A stretch of 64,000 nt of DNA from an uncultured Bacilli bacterium (GCA_934096985.1 CAKONC010000001.1:494-64493); one strand, 5' to 3'. Positions 5,174 to 64,000 are shown, counted from the first letter of the stretch. Notes: generated by a model from the sequence alone, not told the origin. Made by a program: numbers and translations.

Positions 5174-5261
5174 GCTCGTATGGCGGAATTGGTAGACGCG
5201 ATAGACTCAAAATCTATTTTTCCAAAAGAAAGTATCGGTTCGACCCCGATTACGAGCACCA
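5174..5261 (+). tRNA. tRNA-Leu(CAA), long variable arm, CCA encoded
   Basis: Acceptor GCTCGTA/TACGAGC, anticodon loop CTCAAAA, T-loop GGTTCGA, 88 nt. Confidence 0.85.
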
Positions 5262-6427: not shown

Positions 6428-7052
6428 TAAAAAATTTGTAGTTGAAACTTTATTTTTAAAAGAAGCTTTAAAGTATAATTTAACATTAAAAGAATTTTTG
6501 ATTTTAATGTATTTTGATAATGATTACGATTTAGTATTTGATGTAAAAAAAGTATCTAAAGCAATTTGTCTTTCTGAAGAAGAAACACTTAAAGCATTTG
6601 AGAGTTTATTAACAAAAAGATTAATTAAATTAAATTCAGTTAAAAATGAAAATGGAAAATTAATTGACAAAATATCTTTAGATAATTTTTATAATAGTTT
6701 AAAAGAATCAATAAATTTAGAGAATGAAGAAAAAGATGAAAATAGTATTTTTTATAAATTTCAAGAAATATTTGGTAAAAGTTTATCTGGAATGGATTAT
6801 GAAATTATTAATGCTTGGTTATCAAAAGGATTTAGCAAAGAGCTTATTTTAGAGGCTTTAAACGAAGCAATAAAAAATAATGCTCCATCTCTAAGATATA
6901 TTGATAAAATATTATTTGATTGGAATAAAAAAGGCTATAAATCTATAAATGATATAAAAAAATATAATAAATCAGAGGATAATTATTATACTGAAGAACA
7001 AAAGTTTGAAAGTAGTGTATTTGATTATAATTGGTTGGATGATGAAAATTAA
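6414..7052 (+). CDS. dnaD: DnaD-domain replication initiation/membrane attachment protein
   Basis: C-terminal DnaD/DnaB_2-like repeat (FGKSLSGMDYEIINAWL...SLRYIDKILFDWNKKG). Sits upstream of nth as in Bacillus. Confidence 0.65.
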   Translation: MNKDNKKFVVETLFLKEALKYNLTLKEFLILMYFDNDYDLVFDVKKVSKAICLSEEETLKAFESLLTKRLIKLNSVKNENGKLIDKISLDNFYNSLKESINLENEEKDENSIFYKFQEIFGKSLSGMDYEIINAWLSKGFSKELILEALNEAIKNNAPSLRYIDKILFDWNKKGYKSINDIKKYNKSEDNYYTEEQKFESSVFDYNWLDDEN

Positions 7053-23717: not shown

Positions 23718-23793
23718 GCTGGAGTAGCTCAGTTGGTAGAGCAATGCACTCGTAACGCATAGGTCATAAGTTCGATCCTTGTCTCCAGCACCA
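23718..23793 (+). tRNA. tRNA-Thr(CGT), CCA encoded
   Basis: Acceptor GCTGGAG/CTCCAGC, anticodon loop CTCGTAA, T-loop TTCGATC. Confidence 0.85.
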
Positions 23794-25236: not shown

Positions 25237-25313
25237 GGCGGAATTGGTGAAGTGGTTAACACGGTAGATTGTGGCTCTATTATGCAAGGGTTCGACTCCC
25301 TTATTTCGCCCCA
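25237..25313 (+). tRNA. tRNA-His(GTG) with encoded G-1 and CCA
   Basis: G-1 opposite C73, acceptor GCGGAAT/ATTTCGC, anticodon loop TTGTGGC, T-loop TTCGACT. Confidence 0.85.
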
Positions 25314-59274: not shown

Positions 59275-61056
59275 ATGGCAAGTAAAAATATGATTGAACA
59301 ACTTAAAAAACCTAAGAGAAATCTTGGGTTTTTGAAAGTTAAATTTAATATAGTGGATCCGGAAACTAATCCGGACTTATCAAGTAATAGTGAAGAGATA
59401 TTTAGTGACTTAGATAATATCAAAGAAACAACAATACCTCAATCTAAAAATTATGCTACACTTGAAAAAAACTTTTGGCTTCTTAATGATAGTCAGCCAA
59501 TATATGGTAGTGAAGAACTTGAACAAACTTATGTGAGTTCTTATATGAGTGATAAAAATTGTTTGTTTAGTGATAAAGCTTGTATAACTCTTACATCAAG
59601 CGTTTACTTAACTACTTTAGGACTTACAATGGTTTTTGATAGTATTGATAAAAACTATGCAAAAAAACTAAAGGTAAAAGCATATAGAGATAGCACTATG
59701 ATTATGGATAAAGATTATACTTTGAGTAGTTATAGTGATAGATTAATTTTTGCTGATAATGAAGAGTTAGTTAGATGGAATAAAATTGAAATATATTTTA
59801 TAGAATCTAGTTTACCTTATAGGAGAATAAGAGTAAATCAATTACTATTTGGTATTATGGAAACATATACCGATGAGAACTTAATTAGTGCTGAAAGTAA
59901 AGAAAAAACAACAATGATAAACTCGGAGCTTCCTACTCATACATTTAAGTTTACTATTGATAATATGAATAAATTGTTTAATCCTGATAATCCACAAGGC
60001 TGGTATAGATATATATTACAGCAACAACCTATTTCTTATGAATGGGGCTATCAATTAGACGATGGAACTATTGAATGGATATTAGGTGGAAAAATGCTTC
60101 TTACTGGTTCGGTAGAGGTTGGAGAAAATCAAGTATCATTTAGTACGACTTCACTTATCAATTATCTTACTAAAGTATATAAAAAAGGAGTGTATAATTC
60201 TAGTGGTAGAAGTTTGTATGATTTGGCGGTAGATGTATTAGAAGATAGTAATATAGATAGTAGCCAATATAATTTATGGAGTGGCTTAAAGTCGATTAAG
60301 ACTGACGCACCTTTACCTAAATTAGAAGCTAGACAATTACTTCAAATAATAGCAACTACTGGAAATTGTATTTTATTTACTAATAGAGAGAATGTTATAA
60401 ATATTCAACCTTTTAACTATGTATTAAATCCTGATGGAATGAGTTATGATTTTATTACTAGCAATCCTGTAGTTAAAGTACAAAGTGAGTTACATAATAC
60501 TATCATATATATAAATCATTATTCTAAGGAAGATAATGTAAGTGAATTGTTTAAAAATGAATCTTTAGAGATAACAGGAACAAAGACTATTGAAATAGAA
60601 TATGACTTAGCAACTGACATATCAGCTACTATAACAGGCGGAACTATTGTTAGTGCTAATTATTATGGTAGATATGCAATGTTAAAAATTACTAATACTG
60701 GTGAAGATACAATATCTTTAAAAGTATCAGGTAAGAAAATAAATAATAGTCAAACAATAGATTCAAAAAAATTTAATGATGATGGTGAGAATATTGAATA
60801 TAAAAACGATTTGATTACTCAAATGGTTGAAAGCTCAAAAGAAACTAAATTAAAAGACTTTATAGGAAACTGGTACAACAATAGAAATATTTACTCTTTT
60901 GAAAATAGAGGAGATATTGTAAAAGATACTAGAGAGATTATTCCTATAGAAACTGACTTTAGTAATAGTTTAATTGGTTATTTAGTAGAAAACAATATAA
61001 ACTATGATGGAGCTTGGTCTGGTAATAGTGTAGTAGTAAAAGTAGGTGATAACTAA
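59275..61056 (+). CDS. tail/baseplate structural protein
   Basis: 593 aa, by position. Confidence 0.45.
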   Translation: MASKNMIEQLKKPKRNLGFLKVKFNIVDPETNPDLSSNSEEIFSDLDNIKETTIPQSKNYATLEKNFWLLNDSQPIYGSEELEQTYVSSYMSDKNCLFSDKACITLTSSVYLTTLGLTMVFDSIDKNYAKKLKVKAYRDSTMIMDKDYTLSSYSDRLIFADNEELVRWNKIEIYFIESSLPYRRIRVNQLLFGIMETYTDENLISAESKEKTTMINSELPTHTFKFTIDNMNKLFNPDNPQGWYRYILQQQPISYEWGYQLDDGTIEWILGGKMLLTGSVEVGENQVSFSTTSLINYLTKVYKKGVYNSSGRSLYDLAVDVLEDSNIDSSQYNLWSGLKSIKTDAPLPKLEARQLLQIIATTGNCILFTNRENVINIQPFNYVLNPDGMSYDFITSNPVVKVQSELHNTIIYINHYSKEDNVSELFKNESLEITGTKTIEIEYDLATDISATITGGTIVSANYYGRYAMLKITNTGEDTISLKVSGKKINNSQTIDSKKFNDDGENIEYKNDLITQMVESSKETKLKDFIGNWYNNRNIYSFENRGDIVKDTREIIPIETDFSNSLIGYLVENNINYDGAWSGNSVVVKVGDN

Positions 61057-61595
61057 TGGCGTGGATAGATCCTATATATGATAGAACACAAGCTGATGTT
61101 GATTTAATAAAATTAGATCCAACTAATAGCAATAATAAAGGTGCTTATAATTATACTGACTTAAATAGAATAGAAAGTAATTGTGAATATATAATGAATC
61201 TACTAAATAATAGTGATTTATTTTATTATCCAATCAATATAGAAGTAAAAACTGATTGGAATGTTAAAGACATACCTCACATTAAAGATATAAATAGAAT
61301 AAGACAAAATATTCTAACTTTAAAAAATGGTATGAATCTAGGTGAAGAATATAAAGAAATAGAATTTAGTAAAACAATGGATTATATTAAAGCTAATATT
61401 CTTGAAAAAGATTTAACTTTAATAAAAGGTATTATTGATTCTTGTATGAGAGAATTAAGAAAGTGTAATACTTTCTATTGTGGAGCTAATGGTATTGGTT
61501 TGTATGCTAAGCCTGATAATCAAGAGCCTGTCGGCTTTGTAAAAATAAAACAATATGCAGGTTTGATATATTGTGGAGAGGAGTTTAGTTTATGA
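61056..61595 (+). CDS. tail-associated protein
   Basis: ATGA-type overlaps on both sides. Confidence 0.35.
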   Translation: MAWIDPIYDRTQADVDLIKLDPTNSNNKGAYNYTDLNRIESNCEYIMNLLNNSDLFYYPINIEVKTDWNVKDIPHIKDINRIRQNILTLKNGMNLGEEYKEIEFSKTMDYIKANILEKDLTLIKGIIDSCMRELRKCNTFYCGANGIGLYAKPDNQEPVGFVKIKQYAGLIYCGEEFSL

Positions 61596-63136
61596 AACAA
61601 TATAATAAAACGAATTGGAAAGATAGAATAGTTCAATTTCCTAATAGATATAAAGACCAAGATAACAATATTATAACTTTAACTCAAGATCCGGGCGAAG
61701 TTGCTCAAGATGGAACTCTTGTAGAAGCTGAGAAGATGAATAATATTGAAAATGGAATTGAAGAATCATTTAAAAATAGAGATTTTGGATATTCTACTAC
61801 TTTACTCGTGGCTAACTGGACTAAAAACACTAATACAGGATACTACGAATATGATATAATAAATGAGGACATTACAGCTCAAACTATTGTTGATGGAATG
61901 TTGGATATTGAAAATCAAGCTAAACTAAATATTGCTTATACTTTATCTTATACAGGTGGATTTAAAGTAATAACTACTGAATTACCTAATGAAGATATAG
62001 ATATAACTTTCAAATATTCATTGTTGAATAGTGATGATGAAAATTTAGTAGCAAGAGGAACAATAAATGTTAGTGCTATTGATACTAAAAATATAAATAA
62101 AATATATGGTATTAAAAGGTCATTAACTACATCGTCATCAGCTTGGGAGAGAATAAAAGACGCTGTGGGACTTGTAGCTAACGCTCAAGTAGGAACAACG
62201 CCTGTAAGAAATGATTTTGATGAAATTTATCCGTGGAGTGATATAATTTCGTACAATTATGATATAACAGCTAAGCAAATAACCGCCTATTATGGTGATC
62301 CAACCTTTAAATTTGATGGTTCAAATGGTGATGTATTTACCAAGATACCTGAATTTTATTGGAAAAGATATAGAGATGAAAATTATGAATATATTTTAAT
62401 CTCAAAAAATAAATTAGCTGGTTATATTAAAAGTGAAGAGTTTTCGGTTGGTAGATATACTATGTCAGGTAGTGAATCAAGAGTTTATAGTAGAAGTGGA
62501 TACGCACCATTCACAAATAAAACTATTACAAACTTTAGAAGTTATGCAAGAAGTTTAGGAGCCGGATTCGGTCAAATGGACTGGCACTATTTTATCTTAC
62601 AAATGCTTTACTTAGTAGAATATGCTGACTATAATAGTCAATCTAAACTTGGTTTAGGTTATACTAATGGCTCTCACACAGCACCAATAAATAGTGGTGG
62701 TTGTGATGTACTGGGTATGAAGTCAGGAAGCAAAGACGGAACTGATAATACTTCTATGATTTATAGAGGTATTGAAGATATATTCGGTAATATATGGCAA
62801 TTTGTTGATGGAATCAATATTAAAGATAGAAAAGCTTATATTTGCTATGATTCTAATAAATATGCTGTAGATACATTTAGTGGTAGTTATAAAGCTTTAG
62901 GTTATACTAATGCAACCGCTAATGGATTTGCTTCTAAGCTAGGATATGATTCCGCTAATCCTATGGTAGCGTTAGCTACTGAATCAGCTGGAAGTAGTGA
63001 TACTAATATGTGTGATTATTATTACCAAGCTGAGGGAGATAGGATTGCTCTTGTCGGCTTGTGGTTTTGGTGGTTTGCTGGTACTTCCTCTTATTTTGGT
63101 ATTGCGACCGGTGCTCGACTTCTTAGAAACCAGTAA
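61592..63136 (+). CDS. receptor-binding tail fibre with FGE-sulfatase/C-type-lectin-like C-terminal domain
   Basis: YRGIEDIFGNIWQFVDG resembles the FGE-family GNVWEW motif. C-terminus ALVG..LWFWW....SS.....GARLL is the first unit of the downstream cassette array. Confidence 0.6.
   Translation: MKQYNKTNWKDRIVQFPNRYKDQDNNIITLTQDPGEVAQDGTLVEAEKMNNIENGIEESFKNRDFGYSTTLLVANWTKNTNTGYYEYDIINEDITAQTIVDGMLDIENQAKLNIAYTLSYTGGFKVITTELPNEDIDITFKYSLLNSDDENLVARGTINVSAIDTKNINKIYGIKRSLTTSSSAWERIKDAVGLVANAQVGTTPVRNDFDEIYPWSDIISYNYDITAKQITAYYGDPTFKFDGSNGDVFTKIPEFYWKRYRDENYEYILISKNKLAGYIKSEEFSVGRYTMSGSESRVYSRSGYAPFTNKTITNFRSYARSLGAGFGQMDWHYFILQMLYLVEYADYNSQSKLGLGYTNGSHTAPINSGGCDVLGMKSGSKDGTDNTSMIYRGIEDIFGNIWQFVDGINIKDRKAYICYDSNKYAVDTFSGSYKALGYTNATANGFASKLGYDSANPMVALATESAGSSDTNMCDYYYQAEGDRIALVGLWFWWFAGTSSYFGIATGARLLRNQ
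63050..63125 (+). repeat. cassette copy 0 (expressed, VR-like), 60 nt between anchors
   Basis: CTTGTCGGC at 63050 and GGTGCTCGACTTCTTA at 63110. Encodes LVGLWFWWFAGTSSYFGIATGARLL. Confidence 0.8.
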
Positions 63137-63137
63137 A

Positions 63138-63191
63138 GTGGGGGTTTGGGGGCGACCAGCCTCCCATAAAAAGAATCGACTTTAGTCGATT
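63138..63191 (+). promoter_or_regulatory. GC-rich element + 7-bp/4-nt-loop hairpin just after the fibre stop (IMH/cruciform-like)
   Basis: GTGGGGGTTTGGGGGCGACCAGCCTCCC (63138-65), then AATCGAC-TTTA-GTCGATT (63174-91). Absent after copies 1-4. Confidence 0.4.
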
Positions 63192-63259
63192 ATAAAAATA
63201 AAATTACCTTATTGGGAATGATGTGTAGTTGAGTAGATGTCCTTTGTTTTGCTGATTTT

Positions 63260-63365
63260 CTTGTCGGCGGTCAGTGGAGAAGTGATTTTGAAGATGGGTT
63301 GTTTGCTTCTAGTTGGAGTGCTACTTCCGGTCTTACCACTACCGACATCGGTGCTCGACTTCTTA
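63260..63365 (+). repeat. silent cassette copy 1
   Basis: Anchors at 63260 and 63350 (90 nt apart). In-frame LVGGQWRSDFEDGLFASSWSATSGLTTTDIGARLL. Confidence 0.8.
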
Positions 63366-63426
63366 TAAGGGATTTGATGTGTTTTGTACCGGTTTGTAGT
63401 TCTAGCTACTTGTTGGTTTCTTTGCT

Positions 63427-63532
63427 CTTGTCGGCGGTAATTGGAACAACACTTCCAAGGCTGGCTTGTGGTATTGGAATTTCAATAACGCTTCCTCTAA
63501 TATGTGGACTACCATCGGTGCTCGACTACTTA
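63427..63532 (+). repeat. silent cassette copy 2 (Asn-codon rich)
   Basis: Anchors at 63427 and 63517 (90 nt apart). LVGGNWNNTSKAGLWYWNFNNASSNMWTTIGARLL. Confidence 0.8.
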
Positions 63533-63585
63533 GTTTAATAATGGGACTTGATGTGTAAGAGTACTGGCTTGCTATGAGCTTTGCT

Positions 63586-63691
63586 CTTGTCGGCGGTATG
63601 TATTGGGACACTTTGACTTGTGGCTTGTGGTATTGGGCTTTAGATCATACTTCGTCCTATGTTTATTCCGATACCGGTGCTCGACTTCTTA
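63586..63691 (+). repeat. silent cassette copy 3
   Basis: Anchors at 63586 and 63676 (90 nt apart). LVGGMYWDTLTCGLWYWALDHTSSYVYSDTGARLL. Confidence 0.8.
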
Positions 63692-63740
63692 TTTATAGGG
63701 AAATGATGTGTATGAGAGTGCCTGTCATACTTCCAATCAT

Positions 63741-63846
63741 CTTGTCGGCGGTAGATATGGTCTTGGTTTACCGGCTGGCTTGTGGTGTTGGACTATGAAC
63801 AATACTTCGTCTAATGTTGCTGTCAATATCGGTGCTCGACTTATTA
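63741..63846 (+). repeat. silent cassette copy 4
   Basis: Anchors at 63741 and 63831 (90 nt apart). LVGGRYGLGLPAGLWCWTMNNTSSNVAVNIGARLI. Confidence 0.8.
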
Positions 63847-63916
63847 TATTAAGATACTCATTATGGGATTTGATGTGTTTTGTGCTGGTGTTTTTCTCTT
63901 TGTATATACTTTTGCT

Positions 63917-64000
63917 CTTGTCGGCGGTGCTTTTGATGGTACACTTTCTTATGTCGGCTTGTGGTATTGGTGGTTTGCTGAAACTTCCTCTTATTATGGT
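63917..64000 (+). repeat. cassette copy 5 (TR-like relative to copy 0), truncated by window end
   Basis: LVGGAFDGTLSYVGLWYWWFAETSSYYG... Identical to copy 0 over 48 nt except at 4 positions, all A in copy 5. Confidence 0.75.

Follow-up and report, generated by a model that had tools for sequence, protein, structure and literature searches.

The stretch analysed here, a 64-kb window of DNA, ends in a fibre gene followed by five cassettes, all on the same strand, with anchor spacings of 90, 90, 90, 90 and 93 nt. The original prediction had described repeats of the fibre gene end in the same orientation, which was confirmed, and had left their number open because the array seemed to run on. Reading the continuation on the same contig (L001, 21.5-kb) closes this point, as cassette 5 is the last unit: it ends 19 nt beyond the window and is followed by a structured spacer RNA and then by a reverse transcriptase (RT) gene that starts at +165 nt. 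The interval on L001 that separates the RT gene from the fibre gene contains no ORF, and the neighbouring genes encode the RT, a tail-chaperone-like protein and a lysin. The 179-aa and 593-aa proteins encoded upstream matched no family in Pfam or NCBIfam, a promoter and terminator scan of the array returned sites no more numerous than in shuffles, and a blastn search of positions 61000-64000 against 50,697 GenBank phage records gave zero matches. The evidence is comparative throughout and is drawn from metagenome assemblies, which are prone to mis-joined repeats. The features of the locus are listed below.

61592..63136, + strand: ORF, target gene of the diversity-generating retroelement (DGR); its 514-aa product is a tail-fibre or receptor-binding protein whose C-terminus holds the variable region (VR)
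63050..63119, + strand: VR, shortened by a 33-nt in-frame deletion (from the alignment with cassette 5)
63120..63191, + strand: IMH-like, recipient-specific VR 3' flank consisting of TTCTTAGAAACC, the stop codon and the G/C-rich GGGGGTTTGGGGGCGACCAGCCTCCCAT
63147-63166, + strand: hairpin of the IMH-like flank in the GGGGGTTTGGGGGCGACCAGCCTCCCAT element
63174-63191, + strand: second hairpin of the IMH-like flank
63214..63226, + strand: box 1 (GGGAATGATGTGT), putative upstream selector of cassette 1; predicted anti-box duplex -17.2 kcal/mol
63260..63359, + strand: cassette 1 (T01; LVGGQWRSDFEDGLFASSWSATSGLTTTDIGAR), 90-nt anchor spacing, stop-free in the VR frame
63369..63382, + strand: box 2 (GGGATTTGATGTGT), predicted anti-box duplex -17.9 kcal/mol
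63427..63526, + strand: cassette 2 (T02; NWNNTSKAGLWYWNFNNASSNMWTTIGAR), VR source in L054
63543..63556, + strand: box 3 (GGGACTTGATGTGT), predicted anti-box duplex -16.9 kcal/mol
63586..63685, + strand: cassette 3 (T03; MYWDTLTCGLWYWALDHTSSYVYSDTGAR), identical to the L053 and P0130 VRs
63698..63711, + strand: box 4 (GGGAAATGATGTGT), predicted anti-box duplex -22.2 kcal/mol
63741..63840, + strand: cassette 4 (T04; RYGLGLPAGLWCWTMNNTSSNVAVNIGAR), source of the 3' part of the L002/P0001 VR
63865..63878, + strand: box 5 (GGGATTTGATGTGT), predicted anti-box duplex -16.8 kcal/mol
63917..64000, continuing to window-equivalent 64019, + strand: cassette 5 (T05), the last template (L001 12326-12428)
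L001 12448-12461, beyond the window: anti-box ACACATCATTTTCC
L001 12463-12556, beyond the window: RT-18 spacer RNA
L001 12574-13644, beyond the window: RT gene, 356-aa ORF

The cassettes are framed by short anchor sequences that are confined to this locus. Within the whole 64-kb window, CTTGTCGGC occurs six times, all at 63050-63917, GGTGCTCGACT five times, all at 63110-63831, and GGCTTGTGG five times, all at 63056-63956; a separate repeat search found the same anchor families. Tandem Repeats Finder, run on 62000-64000, called nothing, since the cassette bodies are too divergent. From 5' anchor to 3' anchor the distance is exactly 90 nt in cassettes 1-4, as had been predicted, and 93 nt in cassette 5, whose 3' anchor lies at window-equivalent 64010-64019. 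All window cassettes are stop-free in the gene frame, as are 123/123 unique cassettes from relatives, while the corresponding numbers for the other two frames are 60/123 and 4/123. Cassette lengths across relatives are 87, 90 or 93 nt, with no others. These figures bear out the idea that in-frame modules are under selection, and the random decay that had been named as the contrary outcome is not what related genomes show: their arrays, of 2 to 10 cassettes, are maintained, with anchors and boxes kept down to phages that are ~60% related. Cassette 1 carries 0-3 changes among phages at least 95% related, and cassettes are near-identical across genomes whose VRs all differ. Adenines are distributed over codon positions 1, 2 and 3 of the cassettes in the ratio 940 : 829 : 197, and cassette 2 is the adenine-richest template (22 A). 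The cassette types T08, T16 and possibly T27, which occupy the VR position on contigs that break off or collapse at that point, are probably VRs rather than cassettes and were excluded from the evidence on cassette evolution.

The 356-aa ORF downstream of the array carries the motifs IGNYTSQ and YMDD, in line with the DGR-clade patterns [LIV]GxxxSQ (motif 4) and YxDD, and belongs to Pfam RVT_1. Its best full-length PDB relative is 8ub7_A (328 aa, 'Reverse transcriptase'; E = 1.2e-34), which we take to be bRT, the enzyme of Bordetella phage BPP-1. NCBIfam placed it only weakly, close to the models for group II, retron and Drt enzymes, each time under the cut-off. The spacer between array and RT gene matched Rfam RT-18 with 54.5 bits, the gathering score being 41.3. 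An Avd-like accessory family was found in none of the ORFs flanking the element; an Avd/HRDC accessory protein is common, but not universal, among DGRs. The canonical DGR layout with a single template repeat (TR) is likewise absent, as there are five cassettes here and VRs derive from any of them.

The VR ends 17 nt before the stop codon of the fibre gene. Compared with cassette 5, it differs by substitution at five positions, 5/5 of which are cassette adenines (A>T, A>G, A>T, A>T, A>G), with 0 non-A differences up to GGTGCTCGAC, and it lacks 33 nt (11 codons) in frame between two TGTCGGC repeats. The alignment shows cassette 5 to be the source from which the window VR was last written, the 5' junction having been resolved at the wrong TGTCGGC repeat, with an in-frame loss of 11 codons. 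It is this deletion that makes the gene copy seem degenerate. A full-length allele derived from cassette 5 exists elsewhere (P0129, 525 aa). The window VR allele is identical on 7 contigs, so that ongoing activity is not visible in this lysogen.

Among relatives, the 3' flank of the VR stays invariant even where protein identity falls to ~60%, and its DNA folds with z = -2.35. Pairing in its second hairpin is kept by compensatory changes (ATCGAC/GTCGAT, ACCGAC/GTCGGT, ATCAAC/GTTGAT). Both the invariant GGGGGTTTGGGGGCGnnCAGCCTCCCAT and this covarying hairpin are found 3' of the VR only, the G/C-rich element being missing after every cassette. This distribution indicates that the G/C-rich element and the hairpins mark the VR as the recipient.

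No Pfam or NCBIfam family and no PDB sequence match was found for the fibre protein, which, at 90% identity, is part of a cluster with 1320 member sequences. Among the members listed, differences from the window protein lie mainly in the last ~35 residues, and the VRs within this cluster match cassettes 2, 3, 4 and 5 as well as chimeras of these; P0134 matches cassette 2 at the protein level and P0128 matches it in the 5' half. For the cluster representative P0001, 95% identical to the window protein, the AF2 model is of moderate confidence (pLDDT 64), with the VR below 50. A Foldseek search with this moderate model returned one pair of significant PDB matches, both to the DGR variable protein TaqVP (E = 3.6e-5, TM 0.28-0.37). 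DGRs display the VR on variable proteins of C-type-lectin or Ig-like fold, and any fold assignment for the fibre tip would depend on this pair.

VRs were assigned to cassettes at 30 distinct loci using base-blind costs; adenine-favouring costs were avoided as circular. Mismatches occurred at 211/575 template adenines (36.7%) in comparison to 3.4-4.2% of C, G and T, with a spectrum of 132 A>G, 50 A>T and 29 A>C. At the 24 loci with complete arrays, each VR corresponds to one cassette or to a chimera of two, with 163 mismatches at A sites and 8 at others, and in 19/24 a non-terminal cassette, i.e., one other than that nearest to the RT gene, was the source of the 3' VR part. The L054 VR, for example, derives from cassette 2 with 11-12 A-only changes, and the VRs of L053 and P0130 are identical to cassette 3. 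Chimeric VRs consist of two cassettes joined at the shared central anchor GGCTTGTGG. Such joints are compatible with DGR homing, whose 5' limit is known to vary, or alternatively with an enzyme that switches templates. This comparison shows that any cassette, whatever its position in the array, can evidently be copied into the VR by the adjacent DGR RT with adenine-specific errors. The VRs of L053, L056, L073 and L062 carry 0-1 adenine changes relative to a cassette, which is unlikely given ~37% change per adenine and suggests a non-mutagenic second route (recombination), selection, or assembly artefacts.

We consider it very probable that the locus is a temperate-phage DGR in which alternative TRs in tandem, five in the window and 2 to 10 in relatives, supply a single fibre-tip VR. 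Of the two readings that the original prediction had offered, the one invoking multiple DGR templates stands, given the RT gene at +165 nt and VR changes that lie almost exclusively at cassette adenines, and plain gene conversion falls as the main route. The functional idea behind its expression-site reading is right, too, in that a promoterless in-frame store serves to rewrite a single expressed copy, and chimeric alleles exist.

An account that retains the reverse transcriptase would let only the RT-nearest cassette be active, with unequal recombination at the anchors rotating units and VRs that match internal cassettes being relics of former array orders. Arrays of phages at least 95% related do gain and lose units (5 to 8 cassettes; the window array is without T06 and T07, the junction lying at the 5' anchor), and the window VR does come from the last cassette. 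Yet T05 or a variant of it is the last unit in nearly all of these arrays, and the VRs of the same phages derive from positions 2, 4, 5 and 6. Moreover, L031, L073, L074 and L086, four near-identical phages (genes 96-99.8% identical) with the same four cassettes in the same order, have VRs from C1, C1, C2 and C4, respectively, and internal cassettes all keep box, frame and length, a strictness that an inactive store does not need; we regard this account as improbable. Somewhat less probable still is a store of silent cassettes of the pilE/pilS or vlsE kind, used by gene conversion without reverse transcription next to a separate or idle retroelement. The cassettes are indeed promoterless, in-frame and provided with common flanking anchors, chimeric VRs join at the central anchor, and the (near-)identical VRs of L053, L056, L073 and L062 are what faithful conversion predicts. 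However, conversion cannot yield mismatches that are adenine-specific (36.7% of A versus about 4% of the others), and an intact DGR RT and spacer RNA lie directly 3' of the array. As a minor second route, gene conversion may well operate.

Paired layouts of TR1-VR1 and TR2-VR2 have been reported (PMC12386605, PMC6642488), and with multiple TR-VR pairs per genome being known, each cassette could be the dedicated template of a different remote VR in the host or phage genome, all the more as the same MAGs hold many paralogues of the fibre C-terminal domain. We rejected this reading, which is very unlikely in light of anchors that occur nowhere else in the 64-kb window or in the 21.5-kb L001 and of an adjacent VR that carries sequence from every cassette type; extra remote targets may still exist. 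High divergence of the cassette bodies and the blank result of the tandem repeat search would agree with inert fossils left by duplication of a single template or of the gene 3' end, with VR matches that reflect nothing but common ancestry. The comparative data refute this idea, to which we assign next to no probability: stop-free frames in every one of the 123 cassettes at just three lengths, anchors and boxes conserved down to ~60% related phages, near-identical cassettes in genomes with differing VRs, and VRs that equal a co-resident cassette except at adenine sites all speak against it. A shufflon or invertible segment was rejected as well, because all cassettes are direct, the sole inverted pair is weak (16 nt, 81% complementarity) and no recombinase is adjacent.

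How a template is picked from the array is suggested by the sequences between the cassettes. The true inter-cassette box, GGGAnnTGRTGTGT, precedes cassettes only and is found upstream of 107/111 unique cassettes. The ATGTGT at 63008, initially counted as one of the repeat boxes, has to be removed from the list: it encodes Met-Cys in the gene, and relatives have ATGAGT, GTATGC or TACACT there. The single variable position in the box core is A or G, both of which pair with U. The anti-box ACACATCATTTTCC is present in a single copy per locus, 3' of the array, and is invariant across 16 spacer variants, hence the pairing of box and anti-box shows no two-sided covariation. Predicted duplexes range from -16.8 to -22.2 kcal/mol versus a background of -4.5 +/- 3.9, with box 4 matching the anti-box continuously, including one G-U pair, and box 5 pairing with it in the MFE structure of box5-TR5-spacer and again in the centroid structure. 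The hairpin 3' of the anti-box contains three compensatory pairs and is followed by AAAA. Taken as a whole, the box5-TR5-spacer RNA is no more stable than shuffled sequence (z = +0.94), which limits the support to the specific duplex and the hairpins. A by-eye comparison of cassette 3' ends (GGTGCTCGAC...) with the spacer for a template:primer duplex gave candidates of 4-6 bp only, none of them convincing.

In the Bordetella DGR, a duplex, a short stem-loop and adenosines are essential, and the "cPRT Stop" duplex is needed for cis-primed reverse transcription in this phage system (bioRxiv 10.1101/2023.10.23.563531). In the model that we propose, array and spacer would be transcribed as one RNA, in which each cassette would have its own upstream strand (GGGAnnTGRTGTGT) of such a duplex, and the lone downstream strand (ACACATCATTTTCC), a short hairpin and an A run would open the spacer. 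One box at a time would pair with the anti-box, selecting and delimiting the template. Competing RNA pairings may thus choose the template, as the predicted duplexes suggest.

A more speculative extension, which we find conceivable yet doubtful, is that the array forms a heritable, updatable library shaped by write-back of VR or cDNA, by recombination at the anchors and by competition of the boxes for the docking site. Mutagenised cDNA or VR would be written back, giving adenine-poor 'frozen' cassettes and chimeric ones that archive successful variants, unequal recombination at anchors would add or remove units, and the choice of what is replayed would be tuned by pairing strengths and by a decoy hairpin masking the box of the last cassette. 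Several observations hint in this direction: cassette-to-cassette differences are directional at adenines (T19>T29 7/7, T10>T21 9/11), A<>G versus C<>T differences amount to 43:27 in cassette bodies and 20:38 in flanks, cassette T20 is chimeric, with T05 and one other type as its parts, and an ACACATYA decoy occurs before the last cassette in 22/39 cases and before others in 0/159.

No description of a single VR combined with a tandem multi-TR array was found in the searchable literature outside subscription-only papers; the main DGR surveys and the full texts searched give numbers of multi-TR loci and report TRs paired 1:1 with VRs, but nothing beyond this. The lack of an established precedent, stated at the outset, agrees with this. 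An ordinary DGR varies only the adenine-containing codons of a single template, and the rest of the binding site is fixed. With divergent tandem templates, a phage may switch whole binding-site scaffolds and then hypermutate each of them at adenines, so that the array would join targeted hypermutation to the principle behind antigenic variation from silent cassettes. In terms of DGR biology, the locus raises the question of how one spacer RNA and one enzyme pick among templates, with the per-cassette boxes as a handle. These phages are common in human-gut assemblies, as seen from the fibre cluster alone (1320 member sequences), and a multi-template DGR would help to explain a broad or shifting phage host range. 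For engineering, it offers a natural design in which several templates are multiplexed on one DGR RNA, of relevance to directed evolution. Such arrays may be overlooked by some DGR detection pipelines, in which loci that have at least two TRs are dropped or merged.

Among known systems, the BPP-1 DGR (mtd VR, TR, bRT, Avd) is similar to the locus described here in having a homologous RT (8ub7_A, E = 1.2e-34), adenine-specific transfer from TR to VR, a C-terminal VR in a phage receptor-binding protein, a G/C-rich element with hairpin 3' of the VR only, and a structured spacer RNA that separates TR and RT gene. Its cPRT Stop layout, a duplex of a TR-upstream segment with the spacer start followed by a short hairpin and adenosines, is predicted here as well. 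In contrast to BPP-1 with its one template, a single VR here faces 5 (2-10) tandem, mutually divergent templates, the upstream strand of the duplex is repeated per template, and no Avd gene was recognised. The templates also differ at many non-adenine positions, so that switching alters framework residues which are fixed in BPP-1. The DGRs of Treponema, Stenotrophomonas and the Zeta crAss-like phage Lera share with this locus more than one TR/VR-type repeat per element. In those elements, however, TRs and VRs are paired one to one, or many VRs depend on a common TR, whereas the present locus has numerous TRs in competition for a single VR, arranged as a conserved tandem array with RNA boxes for the individual cassettes. 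Where surveys counted 'two or more TRs', the loci were excluded or not characterised further.

Neisseria pilE/pilS and Borrelia vlsE likewise combine one expressed locus with adjacent promoterless in-frame cassettes, conserved flanks and mosaics, and vary a surface recognition protein. They differ in relying on RecA-type conversion, whereas the adenine signature here points to RNA and an error-prone RT, acting on a phage receptor-binding protein. Mu Gin, P1 Cin and the R64 shufflon also store alternative C-terminal ends of a host-recognition protein beside the gene; unlike these, the present cassettes are direct, with no DNA inversion and no adjacent recombinase gene. As an analogy only, Drosophila Dscam exon 6 employs a single docking sequence together with a selector for each tandem unit, allowing one choice per RNA, the difference being that, in place of splicing, the process selected here would be reverse transcription.

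The array of same-orientation repeats put forward for the 3' flank of the fibre gene in the original prediction was recovered as five units, with anchors (short sequences common to gene and cassettes) in 63050-63956. Throughout the 64-kb window, CTTGTCGGC occurs in six copies, all within 63050-63917, GGTGCTCGACT in five copies within 63110-63831 and GGCTTGTGG in five copies within 63056-63956. The distance from the 5' to the 3' anchor is, as claimed, exactly 90 nt in cassettes 1-4. Tandem Repeats Finder reported no repeat across the array because the bodies between the anchors are too divergent, in agreement with the predicted inter-anchor divergence. The ATGTGT at 63008, taken as a further repeat element, turned out to be coding sequence of the gene that is not conserved in relatives.

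The copy number had been left open as the array runs off the window. Extension past 64000 on L001, a region taken with flanks from the 265-kb ENA scaffold that encodes the exact fibre protein (window coordinate = L001 coordinate + 51591), settled this point. Cassette 5 is the final unit, with an anchor distance of 93 nt and its 3' anchor at window-equivalent 64010-64019, and is followed by a non-coding spacer of about 145 nt and a reverse transcriptase (RT) gene. Four tRNA genes precede the prophage structural genes, all of them within the window's first 26 kb.

Features of the window and of L001
61592..63136, + strand: fibre gene, 514 aa, with five same-strand units 3' of it
start 165 nt beyond the window end (L001): RT gene, 356 aa, adjacent to the spacer
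L001 13598-14110: ORF after the RT gene, overlapping it by 47 nt, 170 aa, Phage_tail_APC domain
L001 14873-15718: CHAP + CW_7 lysin, preceded by small membrane-protein-like ORFs
5174-5261: tRNA Leu-CAA
20082-20158: tRNA Ala-TGC
23718-23793: tRNA Thr-CGT
25238-25313: tRNA His-GTG

The RT contains the motifs IGNYTSQ and YMDD, and its closest solved full-length relative is chain 8ub7_A (328 aa, E = 1.2e-34), which we take to be the Bordetella phage enzyme bRT. The spacer matches Rfam family RT-18, which is counted among the structured motifs known to precede RT genes, with 54.5 bits (gathering score 41.3). Given this RT and the RT-18 spacer beyond the window, the locus is a diversity-generating retroelement (DGR) in the order target gene with variable region (VR), cassettes, spacer RNA and RT. 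The features found comprise the RT clade, an adenine-specific relation between template repeat (TR) and VR, a C-terminal VR, a 3' element confined to the recipient and the spacer RNA. No Avd was recognised at the locus, and in a lectin-fold test matches to TaqVP were obtained on a moderate model and are suggestive only. The Phage_tail_APC ORF and the lysin downstream place the DGR between the tail-fibre and the lysis module.

When aligned to cassette 5 up to the end of GGTGCTCGAC, the window VR shows five differences, all five at cassette adenines (TAT>TTT, two changes in GAA>GGT, TAT>TTT and ACG>GCG) and none at other bases. Judged from this alignment, the window VR bears the signature of a DGR and was templated by cassette 5. 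In addition, 33 nt (11 codons) have been lost in frame from the VR, precisely the stretch that separates two TGTCGGC repeats in cassette 5 (63050-63064 vs L001 12326-12373), which is why the gene copy had appeared degenerate. The identical allele was seen on 7 contigs of differing origin, and the fibre-type protein P0129 from another sample represents a full-length cassette-5-derived allele of 525 aa. The deletion looks like a mis-resolved 5' homing junction or enzyme slippage.

In known DGRs, an IMH (the signal 3' of the VR) and a hairpin mark the recipient. Here, the VR anchor leads into an element found after none of the cassettes, made up of the stop codon, GGGGGTTTGGGGGCGACCAGCCTCCCAT with its hairpin, and a further (second) hairpin. 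In relatives, its G/C-rich part is invariant down to about 60% protein identity and pairing in the second hairpin is kept by compensatory changes. In position and character, the element corresponds to this IMH and hairpin, and by analogy it would mark the recipient here.

At 90% identity, the fibre protein clusters with others in a group of 1320 member sequences. Among the cluster members listed, the final ~35 residues account for most differences from the window protein, and the tips match different cassettes.

Cassette matches of fibre protein tips
P0130: cassette 3, exact
P0134: cassette 2, with changes at Asn, Lys, Tyr and Met codons
P0129: cassette 5
P0128: cassette 2 (5' half) and cassette 5 (3' half)
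P0001: cassette 4 (3' half of the tip)

The comparison covered 106 related loci drawn from collections of viruses, genomes and metagenomes. Between 2 and 10 cassettes make up each array with these anchors, and such arrays extend to phages whose fibre protein is only about 60% identical. For 30 distinct loci, VRs were assigned to their best source as base-blind mosaics, in which any mismatch carries equal cost. Template adenines differed at 211/575 positions (36.7%), compared to 24/568 for C, 30/877 for G and 34/958 for T; the non-adenine mismatches came mostly from contigs with cut-off arrays or a few poorly explained loci. In the tally for the 24 complete-array loci, 163 adenine-site mismatches stood against 8 others, and in 19 of these loci the 3' part of the VR derived from a cassette other than the RT-adjacent one. 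Four loci (L031, L073, L074 and L086) have genes 96-99.8% identical, spacer and RT 98-100% identical, and four cassettes in common in unchanged order. Their VRs nonetheless stem from cassettes 1, 1, 2 and 4, with 4, 0, 13 and 9 adenine-only changes, respectively. It is very probable that the locus is a multi-template DGR in which internal cassettes are used. With the RT, the RT-18 spacer and VR changes that fall almost exclusively at cassette adenines, the predicted alternative of multiple DGR templates is borne out.

Several VRs are chimeras of two cassettes with mismatches at adenine sites only (L014, L022, L023 with one exception, L071, L062 and L101), and L002 counted as chimeric only under adenine-weighted assignment. 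The crossover lies at the shared central anchor. In the Bordetella element, homing always ends at one fixed point 3', whereas its 5' limit depends on homology, from which such a crossover position is expected; template switching is an alternative origin of the chimeras. In L053, L056, L073 and L062, the VR departs from a cassette of its own locus by 0-1 adenine changes, although that cassette has 15-23 adenines, which is unlikely given ~37% change per adenine elsewhere. These near-identical VRs hint at an extra faithful route (recombination), selection for archived sequence, or assembly collapse.

In L003, L055, L061 and L064 (VR position ~5459), the gene is fused directly to a cassette (T05 or T01, the types of window cassettes 5 and 1), with loss of the VR 3' element and of some or all of the array; P0127 (586 aa) is the read-through product of such a junction. 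These fusions are either real deletions by recombination between VR and cassette or assembly collapse where VR and cassette are almost identical. Many contigs of this phage from metagenomes (L004, L008-L011, L059 and L060) stop at or close to the VR, with breaks falling right at the VR or first anchor, as expected for a hypervariable and repeated region. As a consequence, automated surveys can be expected to overlook the array often.

Across 123 unique cassettes, anchor distances are 87, 90 or 93 nt only. The VR frame, as claimed for window cassettes 1-4, is stop-free in 123/123, compared to 60 and 4 for the other two frames, and adenines number 940, 829 and 197 at codon positions 1, 2 and 3. 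On this sequence evidence, the cassettes are maintained. Among relatives, anchors are the same down to about 60% fibre identity, and related genomes with VRs that are all different have nearly identical cassettes. The cassettes keep their order along the array (T01-T02-...-T04-T07-T05), and units are gained or lost at anchors; the window lacks T06 and T07, both present in L002. The homologous cassette pairs T19/T29, T10/T21 and T27/T03 differ mostly at one partner's adenines (7/7, 9/11 and 5/7), with a similar bias in cassette 1 of L031 vs L074 and L086. The ratio of A<>G to C<>T differences is 43:27 in bodies and 20:38 in box and linker flanks. This adenine directionality and A<>G excess suggest that templates may themselves occasionally be mutagenised or overwritten.

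A box, GGGAnnTGRTGTGT, lies upstream of 107/111 unique cassettes (<=1 mismatch), and the sole variable position of its core is A (75) or G (32), both of which pair with U. Each locus has a single copy of its reverse complement, the anti-box ACACATCAT(T/C)TTCC, at 20-27 nt past the last cassette, and 16 spacer variants all keep it unchanged. For the five window boxes, predicted duplexes with the anti-box range from -16.8 to -22.2 kcal/mol, compared to -4.5 +/- 3.9 for other array 17-mers, and the pairing appears in both MFE and centroid folds of box5-TR5-spacer. Directly 3' of the anti-box follow a 5-bp hairpin (three compensatory pairs), AAAA and a covarying long-range stem. The box:anti-box duplex showed no two-sided covariation, and inspection by eye of cassette 3' ends against the spacer gave only 4-6 bp candidates for a template:primer duplex.

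The Bordetella element forms a duplex between sequence upstream of its TR and the part of the spacer beside the template:primer duplex, followed by a short stem-loop and adenosines; this "cPRT Stop" is needed for cis-primed reverse transcription and fixes its end point, and similar duplexes are predicted in 207 other DGRs (bioRxiv 10.1101/2023.10.23.563531). Likened to the cPRT Stop, an array of n cassettes thus has n boxes that could each serve as the upstream strand, and a single anti-box as the spacer strand. Mutually exclusive box:anti-box pairing would then select and delimit the template, an RNA-selection step to which we give even chances. A decoy, i.e., a local anti-box copy (ACACATYA), is located 3-12 nt upstream of the last cassette's box only (22/39 last vs 0/159 others), as in L006 (~6775-6800), L012, L014 (~6880-6905), L022, L023 and L067, and in degenerate form at window 63849-63878. 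This copy can fold into a hairpin, which would then hide the last box; alternatively, it may be a relic of spacer-start duplication.

Other genomes join the C-terminal variable domain to a different N-terminus, either of prepilin type (PF07963) or from another module (PF18454, PF10651 and PF12571), e.g., in P0031, P0043, P0051, P0055, P0056, P0059 and P0061 (loci L036-L044 and L030-L049), and the MAGs CAOJDP01 and CAZEAD01 have 7-8 paralogous loci each. These gut Bacillota-like lineages therefore make wide use of the domain as a module for diversification.

In the full texts searched and the main DGR surveys, multi-TR cases appear only as numbers of loci that have at least two TRs, as TRs and VRs paired 1:1, and in one remark that some VRs are matched by more than one TR; all of these were set aside or not characterised further. 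Within these sources, searchable without subscription, we found no account of a conserved tandem array in which alternative templates serve a single VR. The canonical DGR has one TR per VR, an architecture from which the present element departs, and we rate the tandem multi-template array on one VR as a new form of a known element type. As for the silent-cassette systems pilE/pilS and vlsE, the other reading in the original prediction, the likeness holds in logic, but not in chemistry.
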